Assembly: GCF_016432865.1 (NCBI RefSeq)
Contig: NC_067401.1
Location: 110,856,001 to 110,920,000, forward strand
Direction: 5' to 3'
Length of the DNA: 64,000 nucleotides
Origin: Antechinus flavipes
Lineage: Eukaryota
Every line of letters begins with the position of its first letter. Positions within the stretch are counted from its first letter, which is position 1. The translations under genes were made by a program, and so were the position numbers. Under the pieces are notes generated by a model. That model saw only the letters and a list, made by a program, of their open reading frames with translations, had not been told where the DNA came from and searched no databases. Shown piece after piece: positions 2,170-64,000 of this stretch.

Positions 2170-3850
2170 GAAAACGCTTTTCAATCCAGCTTCCAACCTT
2201 ACTATTCAACTAAAATAGATCTTTCCAAAGGTATTAATGATTCTCAGATCTCATCTTTCTTGACTTCTCTCCAGTCTTTGACACTATTGATCACTCTCTT
2301 CCTAATACTCTCTTCTTTCTAGGTCCTAGTGATATACTTGATGAAGGCCCGAACCTCTAAAATTACTTGAAGGACAAATTCTCTTTGAATCCTCTCTCTG
2401 TAAAAGACCCCATCCCAGGGAAACAGAACAAATAGCTTCTTTCTGTTATCTAGGTGGGGCTGGTTGAGTTTGGAGCTGGAGATACCAATCATATTGAATT
2501 GAAGAGAACATCCATTCAATTCTAAGATTATCTATTCTGAGTCCAGCTCAAACTCCACCCACTAGCCCCCACTAGCTCCTTGGGCTGGTAGCCAAAGGCT
2601 TCTATTATAAAAGAGCCAATTTTAAACTTATTTTTCAAAGAGGAGCTAATATGCCATGCCAAGGAAACTCTCTCTTCCTGGCATAGCAGCCTCTGCCCGC
2701 TGAAATAATATTCTCTTTCAGCATTACCCTCTTTTTATCTCCCTCACCTATTTCCCTAAGGAGACTATATCTTTCTGCCAGGATTTCTCTACTAGAAACT
2801 TTACTTCTCTGCCAGGACTCTTCCACTAAAGAATTTAGCCTTTCTATTTATGCATAGCAAAGGCTGACTTCTAAATGCCTATAATAAACTTCTTTTTATC
2901 AGTCTAGCTTTTTGGGTTCCTAAATTCCTTTACAAAGGATCTCTGCACCGTTAGAAGGGAGTTCCTACAACTCCCTACCTTGTGGGGAATCCTAAGGGGA
3001 TTCAGGGGAGCCAAACCTCTTTATTTGGTTCCCTGAACCCTGAATCTGCCACTAACCTCATCATCTAACTTCCTGACCACCAAGAACCCTAATCTCATCA
3101 TTTGGTTCCCTAACCGGGAACCCTGAAATCTAGAGCTCATCAAACTATCTTCTGGTTCTTCTCCTACTCTCCTGTATTAGAAGTCATGTTATTAAACATA
3201 GGTATCCTGGGTTTTGTCCTGGGCCCCCTTTACTTCTTCTTCTCCATCTCATCAGCTCCCATGGAGTCAGTTATCATCTCTATCCTAATGATTCTTATGC
3301 CAACTTATTCAGTACTAATCTCTCTCTTGATCTCCTGATTTTCTGATCTTGACCTCTCCAATTGCCTATTGAACATCTAGAACTGGATTATGACAGACAT
3401 CTTAAACTCAACAAGTCCAAAACTGAACTCATCTTTTCCCCCAAATCCTTCCTTTTTCTTAACTTCTATTACTATCAAGGGTACCAGCATTCTCCCCATC
3501 ATGCAGACTCAAAACATAGATGTTATTCTGGGTTCTTTTTTCTCTTTTTCCATCTCGCCCTCCTCCTCCCCCCCCCCCCCCCCCCGCCAATATCTAGCCA
3601 GTTATCAAGTCTTGTCTATTCCAACTTCCTTTTTTCCTCTGATACTGCCACTGCCTTGATCACCTCATGCCTATATTATTGCAACAGCTTACTGATTAAT
3701 CAGCTTGCATCAAATCTCTGCTCATTTCACTCCATCCTCCACTCAGCTGTCCAACTAATCTTCCAAAAGTACAGGTCTGACCATGTCAACCCCCTATTTA
3801 ACAAACTGTGGCACCTCTTTGTCATCTTCAAAATCAAATTTATTGTTCAG
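2170..3850 (+). mobile_element. Ancient LINE-2 fragment, split by the LTR at 2339-3142
   Basis: ORF 3362-3886 contains degenerate L2 ORF2 motifs (HLKLNKSKTELIF, LYYCNSLL, RSDHVNPL). L2-like text resumes on both sides of the LTR. Confidence 0.75.
2339..3142 (+). mobile_element. ERV1-like LTR, family copy 1
   Basis: TGATGA...TCATCA termini; 4-bp TSD with one mismatch (TACT 2335-2338 / AACT 3143-3146); TATAAAA 2606-2612; AATAAA 2883-2888; similar to elements at 27145, 62248 and about 63434. Confidence 0.85.
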
Positions 3851-17782: not shown

Positions 17783-25564
<7,782 letters not shown>

Positions 25565-26369
25565 GGTGGCAGTCCCCCCCTTTCCCCTTCACAACCTCGG
25601 CCTCCCGGCCCCCAAAGAAGCCATGGCGACCCCGCCCCCGCCCCCGCAGCTCCGGGAGCCAGAGCTGAGCCCTAGCCTAACCGGAGCCGGAGCCGGCGGC
25701 GCAGCCCCGCGGGCTAGGAGCGGAGGCGGCGGGGCGGGCGGCAGCACCCAGCTGCCGGCGCTTGGGGCGGAGGGGGTGTGTGTGACGGGCGGGAAGAGGG
25801 GCGGAGACGGGGCCGGCCTGCAGAGAGGAGCGACGCCCCCAGGCGGGAGCTGAAGGGAGCGGGAGGCGGGACGAGTTCAGCGATCCAGTAGAGAAGGAGG
25901 GCCGGGTCTCAGCATCCTTGGGCTGAGTGGGGCGGGCTCCAGCGCTGAGCGGGAGAGCCTTGGAAGAACAGAATAAAGTGTGTCCCGCCAGAAAGCCAGG
26001 GAGGTGTGGGGAGCTGTCCGGAGCCCAGAGTTCTGGAGTGTGGCGTACGCTGGCCCAGCCGGGACAGAAAAGGGAGACTGTTGGGGGTGGAGTGAGGGGA
26101 GCGGGTAGCCTGCCCTCCGTCTGCAACTGCAGCCAATGTCCTGAAACCCGACCTCAGATTAACGCCCCATTTACAGTGGGTCTTCTGCTCGTGATCTTTC
26201 AGCTTCCCCTTGGGACTCATCCTACCACCCATAACCCCAAATTCCTCACTCCCGCCACCGACTAGCTGCTTTGCCTACTACTCTACTTCTTGATCCGAGG
26301 CTTTTTTGGTTATTTTGCTAGTAATCCCGGAGCCCTCTCAGCTTCTGGTTGTCCTCTATCCATGAACTT

Positions 26370-27144: not shown

Positions 27145-27970
27145 CGATGAGGCTTAGGTTTTGGGGTTCCCTTCTGTCGGGGAACCAAATGATGAGATCT
27201 AGATTTAGGGAACCAAAATGAGGTTAGGGTTCCTGGTGGTCAGGGAGTTAAATAATGAAGTCTAGTGGCAGGTTTGGGGTTCAGTGAACCAAATGGAGAG
27301 GTTTGGCTCCCCTACACCCCTTAGGATTTGGGACAAGGGTAAGCAGTTTTGGAGAACCTCCTTTTTGGTGGTGCAGAGATTCTCTGTAAAGGAATTTACA
27401 AACCCGAAAACCTAGATTGATAAAAGAAGTTTATTATTGGCATTGGGAAGTCAGTCTTTCCTCTGCATGAACAGAAAGGCTGACTTCCTTAGTAGCAAGA
27501 TCCCAACAGAAAGTAAAGTAGTGGAGGAATCCTGGCAGAGAAGTAAAGTTTCTAGTAGAAAGATCCTGACAGAGAGGCATACAATCTTGTTAGGGTAATA
27601 GATGAAGATAAAGAGAGAATAACATTCTCTCTAGTCTAATAGGCAGAAGTTTCCTTGTCATAGCATGGCATGGCATGTTAGGACTTCTGCAAAGAAGTGA
27701 GTTCCAAGTTGCAGTTTTTATAAGGAAATCTGAGACAGAAGTTTCAATTGAATGAGATTTTCTCAATGCTGTCACTGCACCCAGGCCAAGATGAGACCAC
27801 TTGCTGGGAGTAGTTGAGCCAACAACAGGGGGTAGAAAATCTTGGAACTGAATGCTTCAACTAGTCCCACTAAGATAACAGAATATTTCCCTCAGGCAGG
27901 GTCCCACAGACACAAGGTTCAAAGAGAATCTCTCCTTCAAGGAGTTTTAGAGAGTTTTGGGGTCCCTTCA
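27145..27970 (-). mobile_element. ERV1-like LTR, family copy 2
   Basis: Exact 4-bp TSD ATAT (27141-27144 / 27971-27974); minus strand begins TGAAGGGACC and ends CCTCATCG; TATAAAA 27716-27722 and AATAAA 27430-27435 on minus; homologous to 2339-3142. Confidence 0.88.
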
Positions 27971-28027
27971 ATATGAACCTATGAGTTTCTATGACATAGT
28001 ATGAGTTTTGAAAATATAGGTAATACT

Positions 28028-29365
28028 TAACACCATATACCAAGATAAGATCAAAATGGGTCTGTGATTTAGGCATAAAGAATGAGATCATAAATAAATT
28101 AGAGGAACATACCTCTCAGACTTGTGGAGGAGGAAGAAATTTGTGACCAAAGAAGAACTAGAGATCATCATTGATCACAAAATAGAAAATTTTTATTATA
28201 TCAAATTAAAAGGCCTTTCTACAAACAAAACTAATGCAGACAAGATTAGAAGGGAAGCAACAAACTGAGAAACCATTTTTACAGTTAAAGGCCTTTATCA
28301 CTAAAGGCCTCATTTCCAAAATATATAGAAAATTGACTCTACAAGAATCAAGCCATTGTCCAATCGATAAATGGTCAAAGGATATGAATAGACAATTTTC
28401 AGATGATGAAAGGATATGAAAGAGTGTCCCAAATCACTATTGATCAGAGAAATGCAAATTAAGACAACTCTGAGATACCACTACATACTTATCAGATTGG
28501 CTAAGATGATAGGAAAAAATAATGATGAATGTTGGAGAAGCAGGAAAATTGGGACATTGATGCATTGTTGGTGAGGTTGTGAATGAATCCAATCATTCTG
28601 GAGAGCAATTTGGAATTATGCTCAAAAAGTTATCAAACTGTGCAGACAACTTTGATCCAGCAGTGCTACTACTAGGCTTATATTCCAAAGAAATACTAAA
28701 GAAGGGAAAGGGACCTGTATATATCAAAATGTTTGTGGCGGCCTGTTTGTAGTGGCTAGAAACTGGAAAATGAATGGATGCCCATCAATTGGAGAATGGT
28801 TGGGTAAATTGTGGTATATGAATGTTATGGAATATTATTGTTCTGTAAGAAATAACCAGCAGGATAAATATAGAGAGGCTTGGAGAGACTTACATGAACT
28901 GATGCTAAGTGAAATGAGCAGAACCAGGAGATCATTATATACTTCAACAATACTATATGAGGATGTATTCTGATGGAAGTGGATTTCTTTGACAAAGAGA
29001 AGATCTAATTCAGTTCCACTTGATCAATGATAGACAGAAGCAGCTATACCCAAAGAAAAAACACTGGAAAATGATTGTAAACTATTTGCATTCTTGTTTT
29101 TCTTCCTAGGTTATTTTAATCTTCTGAATCCAATTCTTCCTGTGCAACAAGAGAACTGTTCAGTTCTGCACATATATATTGTATCTAGGATATACTATAA
29201 CATATTTAACATGTATAAGACTGCTTGCCATCTAGGGGAGGGGATGGATGGAAGGGAAAGTCGGAACAGAAGTGAGTGCAAAGGATAATGTAAAAAAAAT
29301 TACCCAGGCATATGTTCTGTCAATAAAAAGTTACAATTTTTAAAAAAGACATTAAAAAATAAAAT
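28028..29365 (+). mobile_element. 5'-truncated LINE-1, same subfamily as 1-2104
   Basis: ORF2 C-terminus ending EDVF*, matching 3'UTR and A-rich tail; 17-bp TSD with one mismatch (AAAATATAGGTAATACT 28011-28027 / AAAATATAGGTACTACT 29366-29382). Confidence 0.93.
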
Positions 29366-30939: not shown

Positions 30940-32620
30940 ATTAGTGTTTAATTTTCTTTGTCTTCATCCTACCTGGTTTAGGTATCAATACCATACCTGT
31001 GTCAGAAAAGGAGTTTGGTAGGAGTCCTTTCCCTATTTTATCAAATAGTTTATATAGTATTGGAGTTAACTGTTCTTTAAAGGTTTGGTAGATTTCACAT
31101 GTAACTCCATCTGGTCCTGGAGATTTTTTCTTAGGGAGTTGATTAATAGCTCGTTCTATTTCTTTTTCTAAAATGGGACTATTTAAGTAATTTATTTTCT
31201 CTTCTGTTAATCTGGGCAATCTATATTTTTGTAGGTATTCCTCCATTTCACTTAGGTTATCAAAATTATTGACATAAAATTGAGCAAAATAACTCCTAAT
31301 TATTGCTCTAATTTCCTCTTCGTTGATGGAAAGTTCCCACTTCTCATTTTTGAGACTGATAATTTGATTTTTCGCTTTCCTTTTTCTAATCAAATTAACC
31401 AAAGGGTTTATCATTTTGTTGGGTTTTTTATAAAAGCAATTTAGTTTTATTTATTAATTCAATAGATTTTTTTACTTTCAATTTTATTAATCTCTCCTTT
31501 TATTTTTAGAATTTTAAGTTTGGCTGTGCATACCCCTTGACCCAGCAGTGTCAAGAAGCAGTGGCTTCTATCCCAAAGAGATCTTAAAGGAGGGAAAGGG
31601 ACCCAGACGTGCAAATATATTTGTGGCGGCCCTTTTGTGTAGTGGCAAGAAACTGGAAACTGAGTGGATGAATATCAATTGGAGAATGGCTGAATAAGTT
31701 ATGATATATGAATGTTATGGAATATTATTGTTCTGTTAGAAACGACCAACAGGATGATTTCAGGGAGGCCTGGAGAGACTTCCATGAACTGATGTTAAGT
31801 GAAGTGAGCAGAACCAGGAGATCATTGTACATGCAACAACAAGATTATGTAATCATCAATTCTGATGGACATGACTCTCTTCAACAATGAGATGATTCAA
31901 ATCAGTTTCGATTGTTCAGTGATGAAGAGAACCACATACAACAGAGAGAGGACTATGAGAACTGAGTATGGACCCCATTCACTCTTTCTATTGATGATTG
32001 CTTGCATTTTGTTTTCTTCCTCAGGTTTTTTCCCCCTCTTGATCCGATTTTTCTTGTGCAGCAAGATAACTACATAAATATGTATACATATATTGGATTT
32101 AACATATATTTTAACATATTTAACATGTATTTTGGACTATCTGACATCTAGGGGAGGGAGGGGGGGAAGGAAGGAAAAATTTGGAACAGAAAGTTTCGCA
32201 AGGGTCAATGTTGAAAATTACCTATGCATGTTTTGTAAATAAAACGCTTTAATAAAATTTTAAAAGAGAGACAATTGGTAAGCTTGAAAAAAAAATTCCA
32301 AGTTTGGTATTTGATTGGAGGTTTTGAATTTGTTCTTTTTCCAGCTTTTTTAGTTATTTTATTCAAGTAAGCATTTAGAAAGATAAAATTTCCCCTTATT
32401 ACCACTTTGGCTGCATCCCACAAATTTTGATATGTTGTCTCATTACTGTCATTCTCTTGGATGAAATTATTGTGTCTATGATTTGCTGTTTCACCCATTC
32501 ATTCTTTAGGATGAGATTGTTTAGTTTCTAACTAATTTTTGGTCTATTTTCCCCTGGCCTTCTCTTGAACGTAATTTTTATTGCATCATGATCTGAAAAA
32601 AATGCATTTACTATTTCTGT
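30940..32620 (-). mobile_element. Older LINE-1 ORF2 fragment (endonuclease end to RT start), split by a nested L1
   Basis: Minus-strand ORFs give [18 protein letters not shown] (32308-32620) and [28 protein letters not shown] (30941-31414). Confidence 0.88.
31524..32299 (+). mobile_element. Nested 5'-truncated LINE-1 3' end (different subfamily)
   Basis: NVMEYYCSVRND..REAWRD ORF2 end, 3'UTR and A-tail; TSD AAGTTTGG (31516-31523 / 32300-32307) at a TT/AA site. Confidence 0.88.
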
Positions 32621-34399: not shown

Positions 34400-34898
34400 A
34401 AAAAGCCATTTCCTCTCCCAACTCCTCGCCGCCTTCCTCGACGGACAAGTTCCCGCGAGTAAACGTGAAGACGACGGCGACGTGCGCGACCCCGACGGGA
34501 GGAGTCGGAGGGAGCTGGGAAAGGACGCAGGACGTGCGTGCGTGCTCGCTCGCGGCGGCGGCGGCGGCGGCGGAGTGGAGCGGCCGGAGCCGGAGCCGGG
34601 GCCGGGGGCCGGAGCCGGAGCCGTGGCCGGGGCCAGGCCCGGGGTGGGAGGCGAGCTGCGGGCGGCGTGGAGGCGATAGATCCCAGGGGGCGGGAGAGGG
34701 CCGGGCGCAAGCGGAACCGAGCGCAGCGGGGCCCGGGGCCGGGTTCGGTGGGTCCGAGGCCCCAGGTTGCGTGGGGCGGGCGGGAGGGAGGAGCCGCAGA
34801 CCGTCGCCGCGGGGGGTGGGGGGCCGGTCTCCGGCCGCAGCGCCGCCGCCATCACGGACTTCCTGTGGGACAAGCGCACGGGCCTCGCAGCCAGAACG
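34400..34898 (+). other. CLK2: CLK2 exon 1 (AUG-free leader); 5' end approximate
   Basis: Ends ...GCAGCCAGAACG|GTGAGC donor at 34898/34899; exon 2 starts directly with ATG at 37231. Confidence 0.8.
34553..34573 (+). repeat. (CGG)7 repeat in the CLK2 5' leader
   Basis: Direct reading; followed by GGAGCC/GGGGCC hexamer repeats. Confidence 0.85.
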
Positions 34899-37230
34899 GT
34901 GAGCGCGCGGCCTGGCGGGCCACGGGGGCGCGCGGCAAGATGGCGGGCGCGGGGGCGCGCGCCGCGGGGAGGACCGGAGACTGAGGGCGCCGGCCCCAAA
35001 GGGGACCTGGGGTCGCGGCCGTGCGAGAGGGCGAGAGGCCGTTGCTAGTTGTTGAAGGAGGCAGTGGTTTTGAGAAAAGGAAGGATGTGGGAGGGGGCTG
35101 GCCCTGTCCTCTAAGAATCCGGAAGGTATGGGGAAGGGGGGAAGGGGCCGAAGTGACCAGGGGTCAGGGACCGAGGTGTGTCGAGTAGTTTCGTGGACCG
35201 AACACGTTAGGAGGAGATCGGCTGGGGCTCCGAAACCACAGGCTGCTGGTTCACCTCGGTAGCTTCTTGGGCCATGATTGCTTGAGCAACTAGGAAAAAA
35301 GAAGAGACTTACAAGTTTGTCGTACAAGAGGTTTCCCTAGAAGTTTATGATAACGGAGGTGCAGACTTGGAACATGGTTGCTGGAGCAAATGGAGGGGGG
35401 AGGGGGAGAGACATAGAAGTTGGCGGTGTGGTAGGTTTCCTTAAGAGTAGCTTAAAGGAAGATGCTCCGTAGGAAACATCTAGGTGCAGGTGAGGTTCTA
35501 GAACTAGATTGAAATGCCAAGAGCATTTTCAGTGCTTGGAAATTGTAAGGTTTTTATAGGTTTAAGATTACAAAAGCATGCTGTGAGTACATTGTCTCAG
35601 TTTATTAGTTATAACTTTAAGAAGTAAGGTAAATATTCTTAATTTACAGATGAGGAAGAAGTAACTAGTATCTTGAGAAATTGTTGTTTTTAGTGTGTTT
35701 CCTTTTGTTCTTTACTCGCGGACCAGGAGTCTAGCCAAATATTGGTCTCCTCACTTAGGAGTTGGGAGTGAGGAAGAGATTCGGAATGTGACCCAGATGT
35801 CTGAGTAGTGTACTGGAACTCTTACCACATGGAATCTTCTACTCCTGAAACCCTCCCTTTTCCTTGTTTGTATGCACATACAAATACAAATGCACATACA
35901 ACCCTTTCCAATCTCAATCACCTAAGATTACTGTTTCCCTCAGAAAGTTTCCCACAATTGGCTTGTGGGGAAGAAGGAGAAAAAGGATTAGTGTTCTTCC
36001 TCCTCCTTCCTACCCCTCCACAGCAGTTGGAGAGTAGTCAGTTTTATCCAAGTGCTGATATCAATTTAAAAACCAGCCATTCTTCATACCTTCTGAATAT
36101 GAGAGGGCAACAGTATTGGAAAGCAGATTCCAGCTAGAGGCTCTCTAAAGAAAACATTGTAAGGGAGATTGGGGGTGGGAAGGACCACTCCAAGATGATA
36201 CTTACTTTTTTATTCTGTACAATTACCTGCATCCTGCCAAGTGTTCTAGGGGGTTAGTAGAGTATTGGCAAAGGGAATTAGATATAAAATTAAGATTCTT
36301 GTCTTTAATATATTTACAGGCTAGATGAAGAAACAGTATGAACACAAAGTGGCATTAGATCATATAAGCAATACACTTTGAAGGCTTGCTATATATTCCA
36401 TAAGCAAAAATAGCTTAACACAGATCTGTTCTGTGTTGTATCCCATCCAAAGATGAACCATAGAAAGGTCCCATGATAACAGTCTTGCCAATTATAATCT
36501 CACAATCTTTCAGCCACTATCCAACAGTTGTTTACTTTAAATCTCTATTATGTGTAAATCATTGTGGTAGATGTATGGAGAGGAATAAAGAATATAGAGA
36601 CTTTTCTTCTGTGAAAAATATAGTCAAGGAAGGGAATAGGACACAAACAGTTATTACAAGATAACATACGTGTATGCAAAACTTCAAAGTGTTAAGTTGG
36701 GAATGACTGAGGAAAAGTTCATGAAGAAGGAAATGTTTTAAGGTTGGCTTTATATGATAGAATTTCAGTAGATGGGTGGGAGAACCACTCCAGTTAAGAT
36801 ACCTTACAGTTCTGGGACATCGATCCCTAGAATTGTAGTAGCGAATGGAACAGTAGAAGGAACTGAGGATATCATTCCAGGGAAAAAGAACAGTGAGAGC
36901 AAAAGCAAGGATAATAGATCCAAAAGACCATATTTTATATGTGTTTCAGCGATGAAAGCATATAATGCTAAGGAAAGTCAAGGTAGAAGAGTAATTTAGG
37001 TAGGATTATTTATGAAAATCTTGTAATTTTGAGCTAGATTGGAAAGGAGGAAAGGATATCACTAGTGAGATGGAGTGAGATGCACAAAGGCAGGAATATG
37101 TTGTAGTTGATAAAGGAGGTCATATAAGAAGCTGATTATTCAACACCACAGGTCTTTGTAGGAGAGACATAAAGATCAGTGTTGATCATGAAACCCTGTC
37201 TCCCTCACTTGTCTCCTCCTCTTCTCTCAG

Positions 37231-52543: not shown

Positions 52544-57734
<5,191 letters not shown>

Positions 57735-61239: not shown

Positions 61240-61760
61240 AGAAAGACTTACAAGAACTGATGGTGATTGAAGCACGCAGAACCAAGAAAATATTGTATAC
61301 AGTAACATGATTATATGATAATCAACTGTGATGAATTTGGCCCTTCTCAACAACGGAGTGATTCAAGGCAATTCCAATAGATTTAGGATGAAAAATGCCA
61401 TCTGAAATCGGAGAGAGAACTATGGAGACTGAAAATGGAACAAAGGATAGTATTTTTGCCTCTTTGTTGTTTGCTTGTTTCTTTCTTTTGGTCTGATATT
61501 TCTTGTGTAATATAGCAAATATGGAAATATTTGAAAAGAATAGTACATATTTAACTTGTGTCAAATTGTTTGCTGTTCTGGGGAGAAGGCAAGTAAGGGA
61601 GGGAGAGAGAGAAATTTGGAATGCAAAGTCTTACAAAAGTCAATGTTGAAAACTATCTTTACGTGTATTTGGAAAAACAAAATACTATTTAAAAATGAAT
61701 GTCGAAAACTATCCCTATATGTATTTGAAAAAATAAAATGCTATTGAAAATTAAATAAAC
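61240..61760 (+). mobile_element. Old marsupial L1 3'UTR fragment
   Basis: AGAACCAAGA..TTGTATACAGTAACA..CAAGGCAATTCC..AAACTATCTTTAC pattern, ending A-rich. Confidence 0.55.
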
Positions 61761-62049: not shown

Positions 62050-63430
62050 AAGCATACTTTTTTTTTTTTACTTTCTTTCCTTTTTTTATTGTAGTAAATT
62101 TATTTTTAATGCACATTGTTTTATGAATCATGAAAAATCAGAGCAAAAGGGAAGACATAAATGGGAGATATAAAACAAAAAAGAAAAAAGAAATAAACAT
62201 AGCATGTATTGATTTATATTCGGTCATCATAGTTCTTTTTCTGGATGTGACAAGGGGAGCCCCGAAATTCTCATTCTCTCTCTCAGACTTTGGGGGGAAA
62301 GCTTGGGAAACTCCCTCAGAGAAGTTCTCCTTTGAGAGACCCACCCCACGGAATCAAAATAAAATGGTTTCATTCTGTTATCTGGGTGGGACTAGTTGAG
62401 TCCAGGACCACTCCTACTTAGCAGGAGCTGGAGATTGAGATTTCTATCCAACTCTATTGAGTTGAAGATTAGTCCAGAGATACATTCAATTCCAAGATTC
62501 TCTATTCTGATCCCAGCTCAAACTTCTCCCAGCCCCCACCAACAGCTGTCCATAAAATAAGATTCCTTCAGCTCAATCCCTTGCAGAGAGCCTAATCATG
62601 CCAAAGAATCTCTCTCTCCCCTTCTACTCACTGAAAAAACATTACTCCGTCTTTAATTCTCTTACCTATTTCCCTAACAGGACCCTATCTACCTCTCTGT
62701 TGGGATTTCTCTGCTAGATTTTTCCTTCTCTGTCAGGACCTGCCATTAAGAAAGTCAGCCCTCTAGCAAAAGCTGATTTCCCAGTGCCAATAAACTCCTT
62801 TAGCCAGTTTAACTTTTCCGGTTCGTACATTCATTTACAAAGAACCTGCACTGACCAGAAGGGGTTCCCACAACTCCTTGCCTTGCACTGAACCTTATCA
62901 TTTGGTTCCCTGACTGGGAATCGAGGGGAGCCAAACCTCATCAGATGCAGATGGCATTTTCTGACTAAAGTCTATTGGGATTATTTTGATTCACTGAACC
63001 ACTGAGAAGAACCAAGTCTTTCATAGTTGATCATCGCACATTCTTGTTGTTATTGTGTATGATGCATTCCTGGTTCTCTTTGGTTTCCCTCAGCATCAGT
63101 TCATGTTAATCTTTCCAGGCTTTTCTAAAATCAGCTTGTTCATCATTTTTTATAGTACAATAATATTCCATTACTTTCATATACCAACTTTCTTTCTTTT
63201 TCTTGTTGGGTATATGTTCTTTTAAAACAAAGCTAATATGAAAATATGGTTTGCATGACTTCACACGTATAATACATTTCATATTGCTTGCTTTCTCAGG
63301 GGGTTTTGGGATAAACAGAGGGAGGAAGAGAATTTGAAATTCGAAATTTTTAAAAAAATGAATGTTTAAAAAATTTACACATAATTAGGAAATAGTTAAT
63401 ACTATAAATAAAAATTACATTTAAAAAAAT
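62050..63430 (-). mobile_element. Old L1 3'UTR-like fragment, split by the LTR at 62248-62943
   Basis: ATAGTTCTTTTTCTGGATG | CAGATGGCATTTTC continuity across the LTR TSD. Confidence 0.5.
62248..62943 (+). mobile_element. ERV1-like LTR, family copy 3
   Basis: TGA...TCA termini; exact TSD GATG (62244-62247 / 62944-62947); AATAAA 62789-62794; internal PBS-Glu 62903-62924. Confidence 0.9.
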
Positions 63431-63433
63431 GAA

Positions 63434-64000
63434 TGAAAGAACTCATCCCCAGCTAACACTCCAATCAAGTCAACCAGCTTTATTGAGCAGGTGGGCCAAA
63501 AAGCTACATATAGATATTATAATGCTAAAAGTAGACTTTGTCATCACCACTGGGAAACGGTGTTGAAATGGGTTGTAGTTCCTTTAAGTATTTCCTATTG
63601 ATCTGTGATTCATTTCAGATTCTCAGCCCCTCCTGGCTGAGGCATATCCTTCCCAGACAAGTTGTCTTTCCAGGATGCCAGAGCCTTTGATTCAATTACA
63701 AATCCTGGTCAAAAAGCATCCCTTTGAATTCCAATATGAGATCCAGGCTCTCCCAGCCCGCATTAGGACACTCAATATAAAAGAACCAAACTAAAATCCT
63801 CTCTTTGCAGAGGTTCCAAACATGCCAGCTATGCCATGCTTGGGATGCCAAGGGCCTCTCTCCACTGAAATATTCTCTTCCAGTGTTATCCTCTCTTTAT
63901 CCTTGCCTATTTCCCTAACCAGATTTTATGCTTCTCTGTCAGGATTTCTAACCTTACTTCCAATCCCCATAATAACTAGGTTTTCGGGTCTGTAAATTCT
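63434..64000 (+). mobile_element. Related LTR, family copy 4; runs off the window end, 5' boundary uncertain
   Basis: ATATAAAAGAACC 63775 onward and ATGCCA/CTGAAATATTCTCTT/CCTATTTCCCTAA blocks match copies 1 and 3. Confidence 0.6.

Follow-up and report, generated by a model that had tools for sequence, protein, structure and literature searches.

Can an LTR come to contain its own primer site, and is this a trait of a family or an accident at one locus? Ordinarily the primer-binding site (PBS) is not part of the LTR, and solo LTRs lack it, as a passage of a preprint states (bioRxiv 10.64898/2026.01.22.698655). In the window, that is, the whole 64-kb stretch of DNA analysed here, we found a solo LTR with intact flanking repeats that carries a PBS for tRNA-Glu close to its right end.

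A tRNA-Glu primer site inside a solo LTR

The element (copy 3) is a solo LTR of 696 bp on the plus strand, located at 62248-62943 and flanked by identical 4-bp repeats. Its features are:

62244-62247, plus strand: left TSD, GATG
62248-62943, plus strand: copy 3, with one internal PBS; family left ends fall at 62248 and right ends at 62943
62789-62794, plus strand: poly(A) signal hexamer, aligned in all three copies
62894-62900, plus strand: first att-like heptamer, end of the short LTR form (contig ends with unrelated flanks)
62901-62902, plus strand: TT between the first att and the PBS
62903-62924, plus strand: captured tRNA-Glu PBS, a 22-mer with a 21/22 match in the comparison with the tRNA-Glu 3' end
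62925-62936, plus strand: 12-nt spacer, predicted to pair with TT-PBS and common to copies 1 and 2
62937-62943, plus strand: terminal att, end of the long LTR form (contig ends with unrelated flanks)
62944-62947, plus strand: right TSD, GATG, identical to the left one

Copy 3 is inserted inside an L1 3' end, and an L1 paralogue at 61380-61440 is continuous across the insertion point. This empty site, demonstrated for copy 3 alone, fixes the boundaries of copy 3 independently of the TSD. The initial annotation had placed the element at 62248-62943 with an exact GATG TSD; the two 4-bp repeats and the L1 paralogue bear this out, and all coordinates hold. The element has the features of an LTR, with TG...CA ends and a terminal inverted repeat, a TSD and membership in a dispersed multicopy family with common ends. 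Copies 1, 2 and 3 all start with TGA; copies 1 and 3 end with TCA, and the last base of copy 2 is altered. The sequence 3' of the hexamer at 62789-62794 presumably represents R/U5. The two att-like ends of copy 3 are 43 nt apart, and the last ten letters of the two 43-mers agree in nine positions. With 62903-62924 located within a TSD-bounded element, copy 3 breaks the rule that the PBS is outside the LTR and absent from solo LTRs. Several groups of class I ERVs have a 4-bp TSD and a tRNA-Glu primer, and this combination is suggestive of a class I (gamma-like) ERV.

Extent and identity of the primer match

The 18-nt PBS pattern gave two matches at up to three mismatches where 0.14 were expected, a number reached by 1 of 100 shuffles. 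The 20-nt att-TT-PBS module gave five matches at up to four mismatches (mean 0.05 and maximum 1 in 100 shuffles), all of them within the three complete LTR copies. According to our own count, the 22-mer of copy 3 pairs with tRNA positions 76 to 55 and ends one base before position 54; copies 1 and 2 lack the extension to 22 nt seen in copy 3. For HIV-1, HIV-2, SIV and FIV, primer complementarity likewise stops a single base short of tRNA position 54, the second RT stop, as described in a section of PMC8599865. The match in copy 3 thus ends at the lentiviral-type limit, which makes it the mark of a genuine primer site and not a novelty. A match running past 18 nt had been called unusual in the initial annotation, a view that falls, since 22 nt is the known lentiviral extent (PMC8599865, in part). 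A read-through into the tRNA as a special event was dropped as unnecessary for the same reason, this extent being reported for lentiviruses (section of PMC8599865). In these viruses the 22-nt complementarity concerns tRNA-Lys3 and a working PBS, whereas here it concerns tRNA-Glu and an LTR-internal copy (PMC8599865, in part).

The first 19 nt of the cytosolic tRNA-Glu primer given in an excerpt of bioRxiv 10.1101/797472 are identical to the PBS match. A part of PMC9404705 (retracted) gives this 3' end for both the CTC and the TTC tRNA-Glu. Of the original assignment to tRNA-Glu(CTC), the tRNA-Glu part stands with 21/22 matching positions, while CTC is not separable from TTC (PMC9404705, retracted, in part).

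A tRNA gene, a tRNA pseudogene and a tRNA-derived SINE were considered and rejected, since in the 64-kb window ARAGORN found no tRNA genes and no Rfam family matched at the gathering score. Tandem Repeats Finder reported the modules in none of its 30 rows. Viral contigs had no matches to two module patterns, and metagenome contigs had none to the module. The 19-nt tail was met at six metagenome loci, all of which were attributed to chance, being matches of 19-26 nt in contigs with a GC content of 52-67%.

Long and short LTR forms coexist in the family

Words of the element occur in 20 sequencing runs, of which four (X1, X2, X8 and X13; four organisms and four studies) were used with all their contigs; those among X10-X20 with shares below 0.2 were, X13 excepted, left aside. 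At 80% likeness, 2799, 2085, 2755 and 2622 contigs, respectively, were aligned to the element, counts that are not locus counts and come from runs that share ancestry, X1 being possibly the source of the window itself. The evidence was taken from the best 24 of 1523 loose-end rows, 15 of 83 joints, 40 of 278 other-letter rows and 32 of 10409 pieces, and short alignments in the wrong register may be present in part of it.

Among the loose ends listed, 67, 52, 66 and 63 contigs (X1, X2, X8, X13) end at 62943, the end of the long form, and 44, 38, 32 and 35 contigs end at 62900, the end of the short form. Over the four runs this amounts to 248 contigs against 149, the share of the long end being 0.58-0.67 per run. 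The sequences beyond both positions agree with each other at 0.38-0.40 only, with a median length of 255, and are thus unrelated flanks. The left end of the family at 62248 was seen in 16 and 20 of the contigs listed for X2 and X8. Both right ends have accordingly been used for integration many times, the long and the short LTR form coexist in all four runs, and the internal PBS is a trait of the replicating family.

Dozens of different flanks at one and the same end exclude a locus-specific deletion as the source of the long form. We therefore consider it extremely improbable that copy 3 is a single provirus that lost its interior after integration through a deletion from the start of the leader to the end of the 3' LTR. 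Its att, TT and PBS follow each other as in a 5' LTR and its final ten letters are repeated, as such a deletion would leave them; however, the same end is found with unrelated flanks in 52-67 contigs per run, and two other TSD-bounded copies share the spacer and carry further modules. Locus-specific deletions had been named at the outset as the finding that would overturn the proposal, and the contigs ending at the second att speak against them.

Several further observations describe the two forms. At position 62896 the letter of the terminal att makes up most of the family depth (7714.5 of 8323.8 in X1, a depth that is not a copy number), showing that both att ends are the same heptamer. Among the best 32 of 10409 pieces, pieces 8, 24 and 32 cover 62789-62943, i.e., the U5 core, the inner PBS and the terminal att, with 21-25 differences; possibly they represent one orthologous locus. 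Piece 5 in X1 corresponds to the window with no differences, so that piece 8 is a paralogue that has the long end. The 2230 nt of piece 22 stop at 62900, making it a copy of the short form. Contigs break within the repeat, and no whole provirus was met among the pieces listed. The depth of the bin containing the PBS is 0.56-0.75 of that of the preceding bin, which, read as depth and not as copy number, is compatible with two forms; the RNA rows carry no information on expression.

The 43-nt unit was also found in tandem, as a joint from 62934 to 62897 with five letters between, in one contig each of X1 and X2 among the joints listed. With 33 letters on its shorter side, this joint may stem from one orthologous locus, from a provirus or from a further internal module. 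In addition, 25, 23 and 22 contigs of X1, X8 and X13 (among the rows listed) have loose ends before 62901 that agree with each other at 0.64-0.74. Read by eye, these ends agree with 62930-62943 over 14 letters, two letters off the expected register. The first att of this U5 variant therefore shares the 14-letter context of the terminal att, which is a mark of tandem duplication.

In the U3 part, at 62380-62490, many joints of family contigs skip 36-104 nt, indicating that subfamilies differ by U3 indels as well.

Serial primer-like sites in related copies

The window contains three relatives of copy 3:

2339-3142, plus strand: copy 1, related solo LTR, 804 bp, TSD 3/4
3026, 3066 and 3103, plus strand: internal PBS-like sites of copy 1, behind att-like ends at 3023, 3063 and 3100
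2996-3041, plus strand: predicted hairpin in copy 1 formed by the spacer and the next PBS-like site, with the att-like end in the loop
27145-27970, minus strand: copy 2, related solo LTR, 826 bp, TSD 4/4, terminal dinucleotide altered
27291, 27250, 27215 and 27187, minus strand: starts of the internal PBS-like sites of copy 2, each behind an att-like end
63608-64000, plus strand: copy 4, further relative with its left end not fixed; the window ends before the module region

Identity with copy 3 is 80% for copy 1 (605 aligned columns) and 76% for copy 2, and copies 1 and 2 share 82%. The part of the LTR that begins with the poly(A) signal measures 260 nt in copy 1, 291 nt in copy 2 and 155 nt in copy 3. 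The att-like ends are spaced at 40, 37 and 42 nt in copy 1 and at 41, 35, 28 and 45 nt in copy 2.

The modules common to copies 1 and 2 form a block with 94 of 106 positions identical. The first PBS-like site breaks off after 11 nt in both copies, and the second has three substitutions and a short insertion that are identical in both; the most distal site of each copy has kept both ends of the PBS. Since these lesions are shared by independent insertions, the upstream sites decayed in the replicating lineage, before insertion. The third site of copy 2 equals the third site of copy 1 minus 14 nt and is followed by one extra module.

Positions 62916-62939 of copy 3 match the stretch before the first full module in copy 1 (21/24) and in copy 2 (19/24), and alignment of the copies shows that 17-18 nt are missing before this first full module. 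The spacer match and the gap together suggest that copies 1 and 2 probably hold a remnant of the copy-3 module besides their three and four recognisable sites. In a global alignment the copy-3 module fits the first full module of copy 1 equally well, leaving the module homology ambiguous. In the window, a higher number of modules is not linked to a younger look, copy 1 having a TSD of 3/4 and copy 2 an altered end.

In their second PBS-like site (3066-3069; 27247-27250), copies 1 and 2 share adjacent changes of the G-to-A type, which could be due to deaminase editing in the replicating lineage; a preprint is said to deal with marsupial APOBEC5. Copies 1 and 2 each lie at most a few hundred bases from one of the L1 3' fragments at 726-2086, 28027-29362 and 31524-32269, which are 72-83% alike.

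Proposed capture by duplication and its alternatives

The primer site in use sets the U5 end, minus-strand synthesis starts at the PBS, and each cycle renews the PBS in use by copying it from the tRNA. An outline of reverse transcription with the minus-strand start at the PBS is also given in part of PMC8599865. We think it likely that the U5 end was duplicated together with the PBS, that priming moved to the downstream site, that the captured site decayed and that these events were repeated. A slip of RT on its template would duplicate the U5 end, att, TT, PBS and the first bases of the leader. Downstream priming would then copy the upstream att and PBS into both LTRs, with the integrase cutting the new att; the spacer, which is predicted to pair with the upstream PBS, may favour the use of the downstream one. 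No longer recopied from the tRNA, the unused PBS would decay. Priming from the inner PBS could bring back the short LTR as long as this site is intact; its breakage would fix the longer U5 and act as the pawl of a ratchet. If the lineage leading to copies 1 and 2 went through the cycle repeatedly, this would yield their three and four recognisable sites, a step that these copies show in part.

With 32-44 contigs per run, ends at the first att are abundant as well. The two forms thus occur side by side, and an intact inner PBS should allow the step to be undone; the short form could represent the ancestor, a revertant or both. The initial annotation had proposed a capture of the PBS into U5 and a ratchet that lengthens U5. 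A replicating LTR form with an internal PBS and serial modules with shared lesions in relatives are borne out; the duplication step and its direction we infer, and the persistence of the short form speaks against a one-way course before the captured site has decayed.

The ambiguous module homology leaves some room for recombination between subfamilies, a route that we regard as unlikely. RT would have switched from a short-form genome, just behind the PBS, onto a U5 end plus PBS of the copy-1/2 type; downstream priming would proceed as in the duplication model, with a borrowed spacer, and a copy-3-like form would not be the source of copies 1 and 2. Such an origin would suit a spacer that is common to copies 1 and 2 (21/24 and 19/24) and is an arm of a hairpin there (z -3.61), as a native U5 end could be. 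The match in copy 1, however, extends back into the PBS 3' end of copy 3, as a remnant would, and the 14-letter att context is found already in a U5 variant of the short form, which makes a donor unnecessary.

The opposite direction, or no direction at all, would follow if a multi-module U5 was ancestral and gave rise to the shorter forms through deletion or through the use of inner sites for priming. By an established mechanism, a single cycle primed from an intact inner PBS would give a shorter LTR; all four runs contain both the short and the long form, and copies 1 and 2 do not look younger than copy 3. Yet the modules had to be gained first, copy 2 equals copy 1 plus one module, and the upstream sites with shared lesions and the distal site with both PBS ends form a gradient as left by distal addition; we give this reading little credence.

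Predicted structures and likeness to the left LTR end

The hairpin of copy 1 at 2996-3041 has a predicted energy of -24.7 kcal/mol (z -3.61), which was reached by none of 200 shuffles. The equivalent hairpin in copy 2 is weaker (z -1.70, 14 of 200 shuffles). When the whole 3' region was folded and compared with 100 shuffles, z was -4.83 for copy 1, -2.60 for copy 2 and -0.63 for copy 3. The 3' region of copy 3 folds no better than shuffles (z -0.64 and -0.51), and its spacer and TT-PBS form a predicted duplex of -16.9 kcal/mol, an energy that stands without a shuffle control.

Retroviral leaders can form a stem with U5. In copies 1 and 2, the last spacer shows complementarity to the part of U5 just after the poly(A) signal (8/3000 and 9/3000 shuffles), and this complementarity would fit an origin of the spacers from the leader. 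A U5-leader stem was also sought for copy 3, where the last 36 nt are without complementarity to U5 (2246/3000 shuffles).

We then compared the left 30 nt of each LTR with its last 36 nt; there were three uncorrected comparisons per copy, and the stretches are rich in purines and C runs. In copy 2 (minus strand), the left end of the LTR (27955-27970) and the last spacer (27155-27175) agree in 16 of 17 positions with one gap (7/3000 shuffles), and none of 565 other windows was as good. Copy 3 has a weak match of 9 nt between 62253-62261 at its left end and 62924-62932 (87/3000 shuffles; none of 571 other windows as good), and in copy 1 the left end and the last spacer show no likeness (860/3000 shuffles). 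This likeness falls outside what the duplication model explains.

It would be expected if each module were a circle-junction-like or mis-transfer product, in which plus-strand strong-stop DNA with the tRNA copy at its end jumps to the left end of the LTR and then returns to the U5 end. The likeness in copies 2 (7/3000) and 3 (87/3000) and the 22-nt length, which corresponds to the second RT stop, agree with such a product. We nevertheless judge it to be very unlikely: the likeness is missing in copy 1 (860/3000), each module would require two jumps, the compared stretches are rich in purines and C runs with three uncorrected comparisons per copy, and a 22-nt primer site is ordinary in lentiviral genomes (PMC8599865, in part). 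Duplication, recombination and the jump to the left end have a common core, namely the capture of a PBS into the U5 of a replicating family.

Comparison with known elements

HERV-E is a class I (gamma-like) ERV primed by tRNA-Glu. Solo LTRs of such class I elements and the family described here are alike in their TG...CA ends, short inverted repeats, 4-bp TSD, poly(A) signal and order of att, TT and PBS; in contrast to them, the present family has the PBS inside U5, one to four times. In LTR12/ERV9, tandem repeats in U3 or U5 vary the length of the LTR. To our knowledge these units contain neither att nor PBS and do not move the LTR end; both systems thus vary in length by short tandem units, whereas here the units contain att and PBS and shift the end of the LTR. 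Voronin and Pathak reportedly engineered MLV and HIV-1 vectors with two PBSs, both of which can prime, a step that the duplication model requires. Those vectors are laboratory constructs, while the present case is natural: a family whose att was duplicated, which multiplied in the germ line and in which this apparently happened several times; the family would be the natural counterpart of the two-PBS vectors.

The ends of an LTR are usually taken as set by one PBS and one att. Here the U5 end has been moved: at least one such shift occurred in a form that went on to spread, and probably there were several. Ordered fossil primer sites with shared lesions provide a built-in record of the order of subfamilies, and they show how primer sites and U5-PBS hairpins drift once they are out of use. 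For annotation, a PBS beside an att is no proof of a 5' LTR or of a truncated provirus.

The survey of dasyurid ERVs in PMC11334065 estimates 64,546 solo LTRs in the Tasmanian devil (section of PMC11334065). Its clades and the present family, for which the initial annotation named a marsupial host, are both marsupial ERVs with many solo LTRs (PMC11334065, in part). Solo LTRs were excluded from that survey, and the words 'PBS', 'tRNA' and 'primer' are absent from its main text (PMC11334065). In a limited literature search that covered few subscription papers, we found no description of serial primer sites inside an LTR; one paper met there deals with mutant tRNAs redirected to other sites. The internal-PBS structure may already be contained within a curated Dfam or Repbase entry.

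3' tRNA fragments of 18 and 22 nt act via the PBS, according to a part of PMC7472051. Solo LTRs are thought to escape control by tRNA fragments since they lack a PBS (passage of bioRxiv 10.64898/2026.01.22.698655). Solo LTRs with an internal PBS would possibly stay targets of 3' tRNA fragments. A wider reading, which we hold tentatively and rate at a little under an even chance, combines these points: a cycle of capture and decay would have swallowed the primer site up to five times, short and long LTRs would be outputs of one genome with two primer sites, and many solo LTRs would consequently retain, unlike solo LTRs elsewhere, a tRNA-Glu target open to tRNA fragments or PBS-binding repressors.

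Other features of the window

Exons of an HCN-type cyclic-nucleotide-gated channel are located at 18580-25588 on the minus strand, where 3 of 20 scanned frames had Pfam matches (Ion_trans_N, E 3e-21; Ion_trans, 3.5e-15; cNMP_binding, 2e-4, under the cut-off). On the same strand, copy 2 is found upstream of the exons and is probably intronic if the GC-rich repeat region near 34550-34960 is the putative exon 1. A GC-rich minisatellite with nested periods of 7, 15 and 22 nt is present at 53549-53881.
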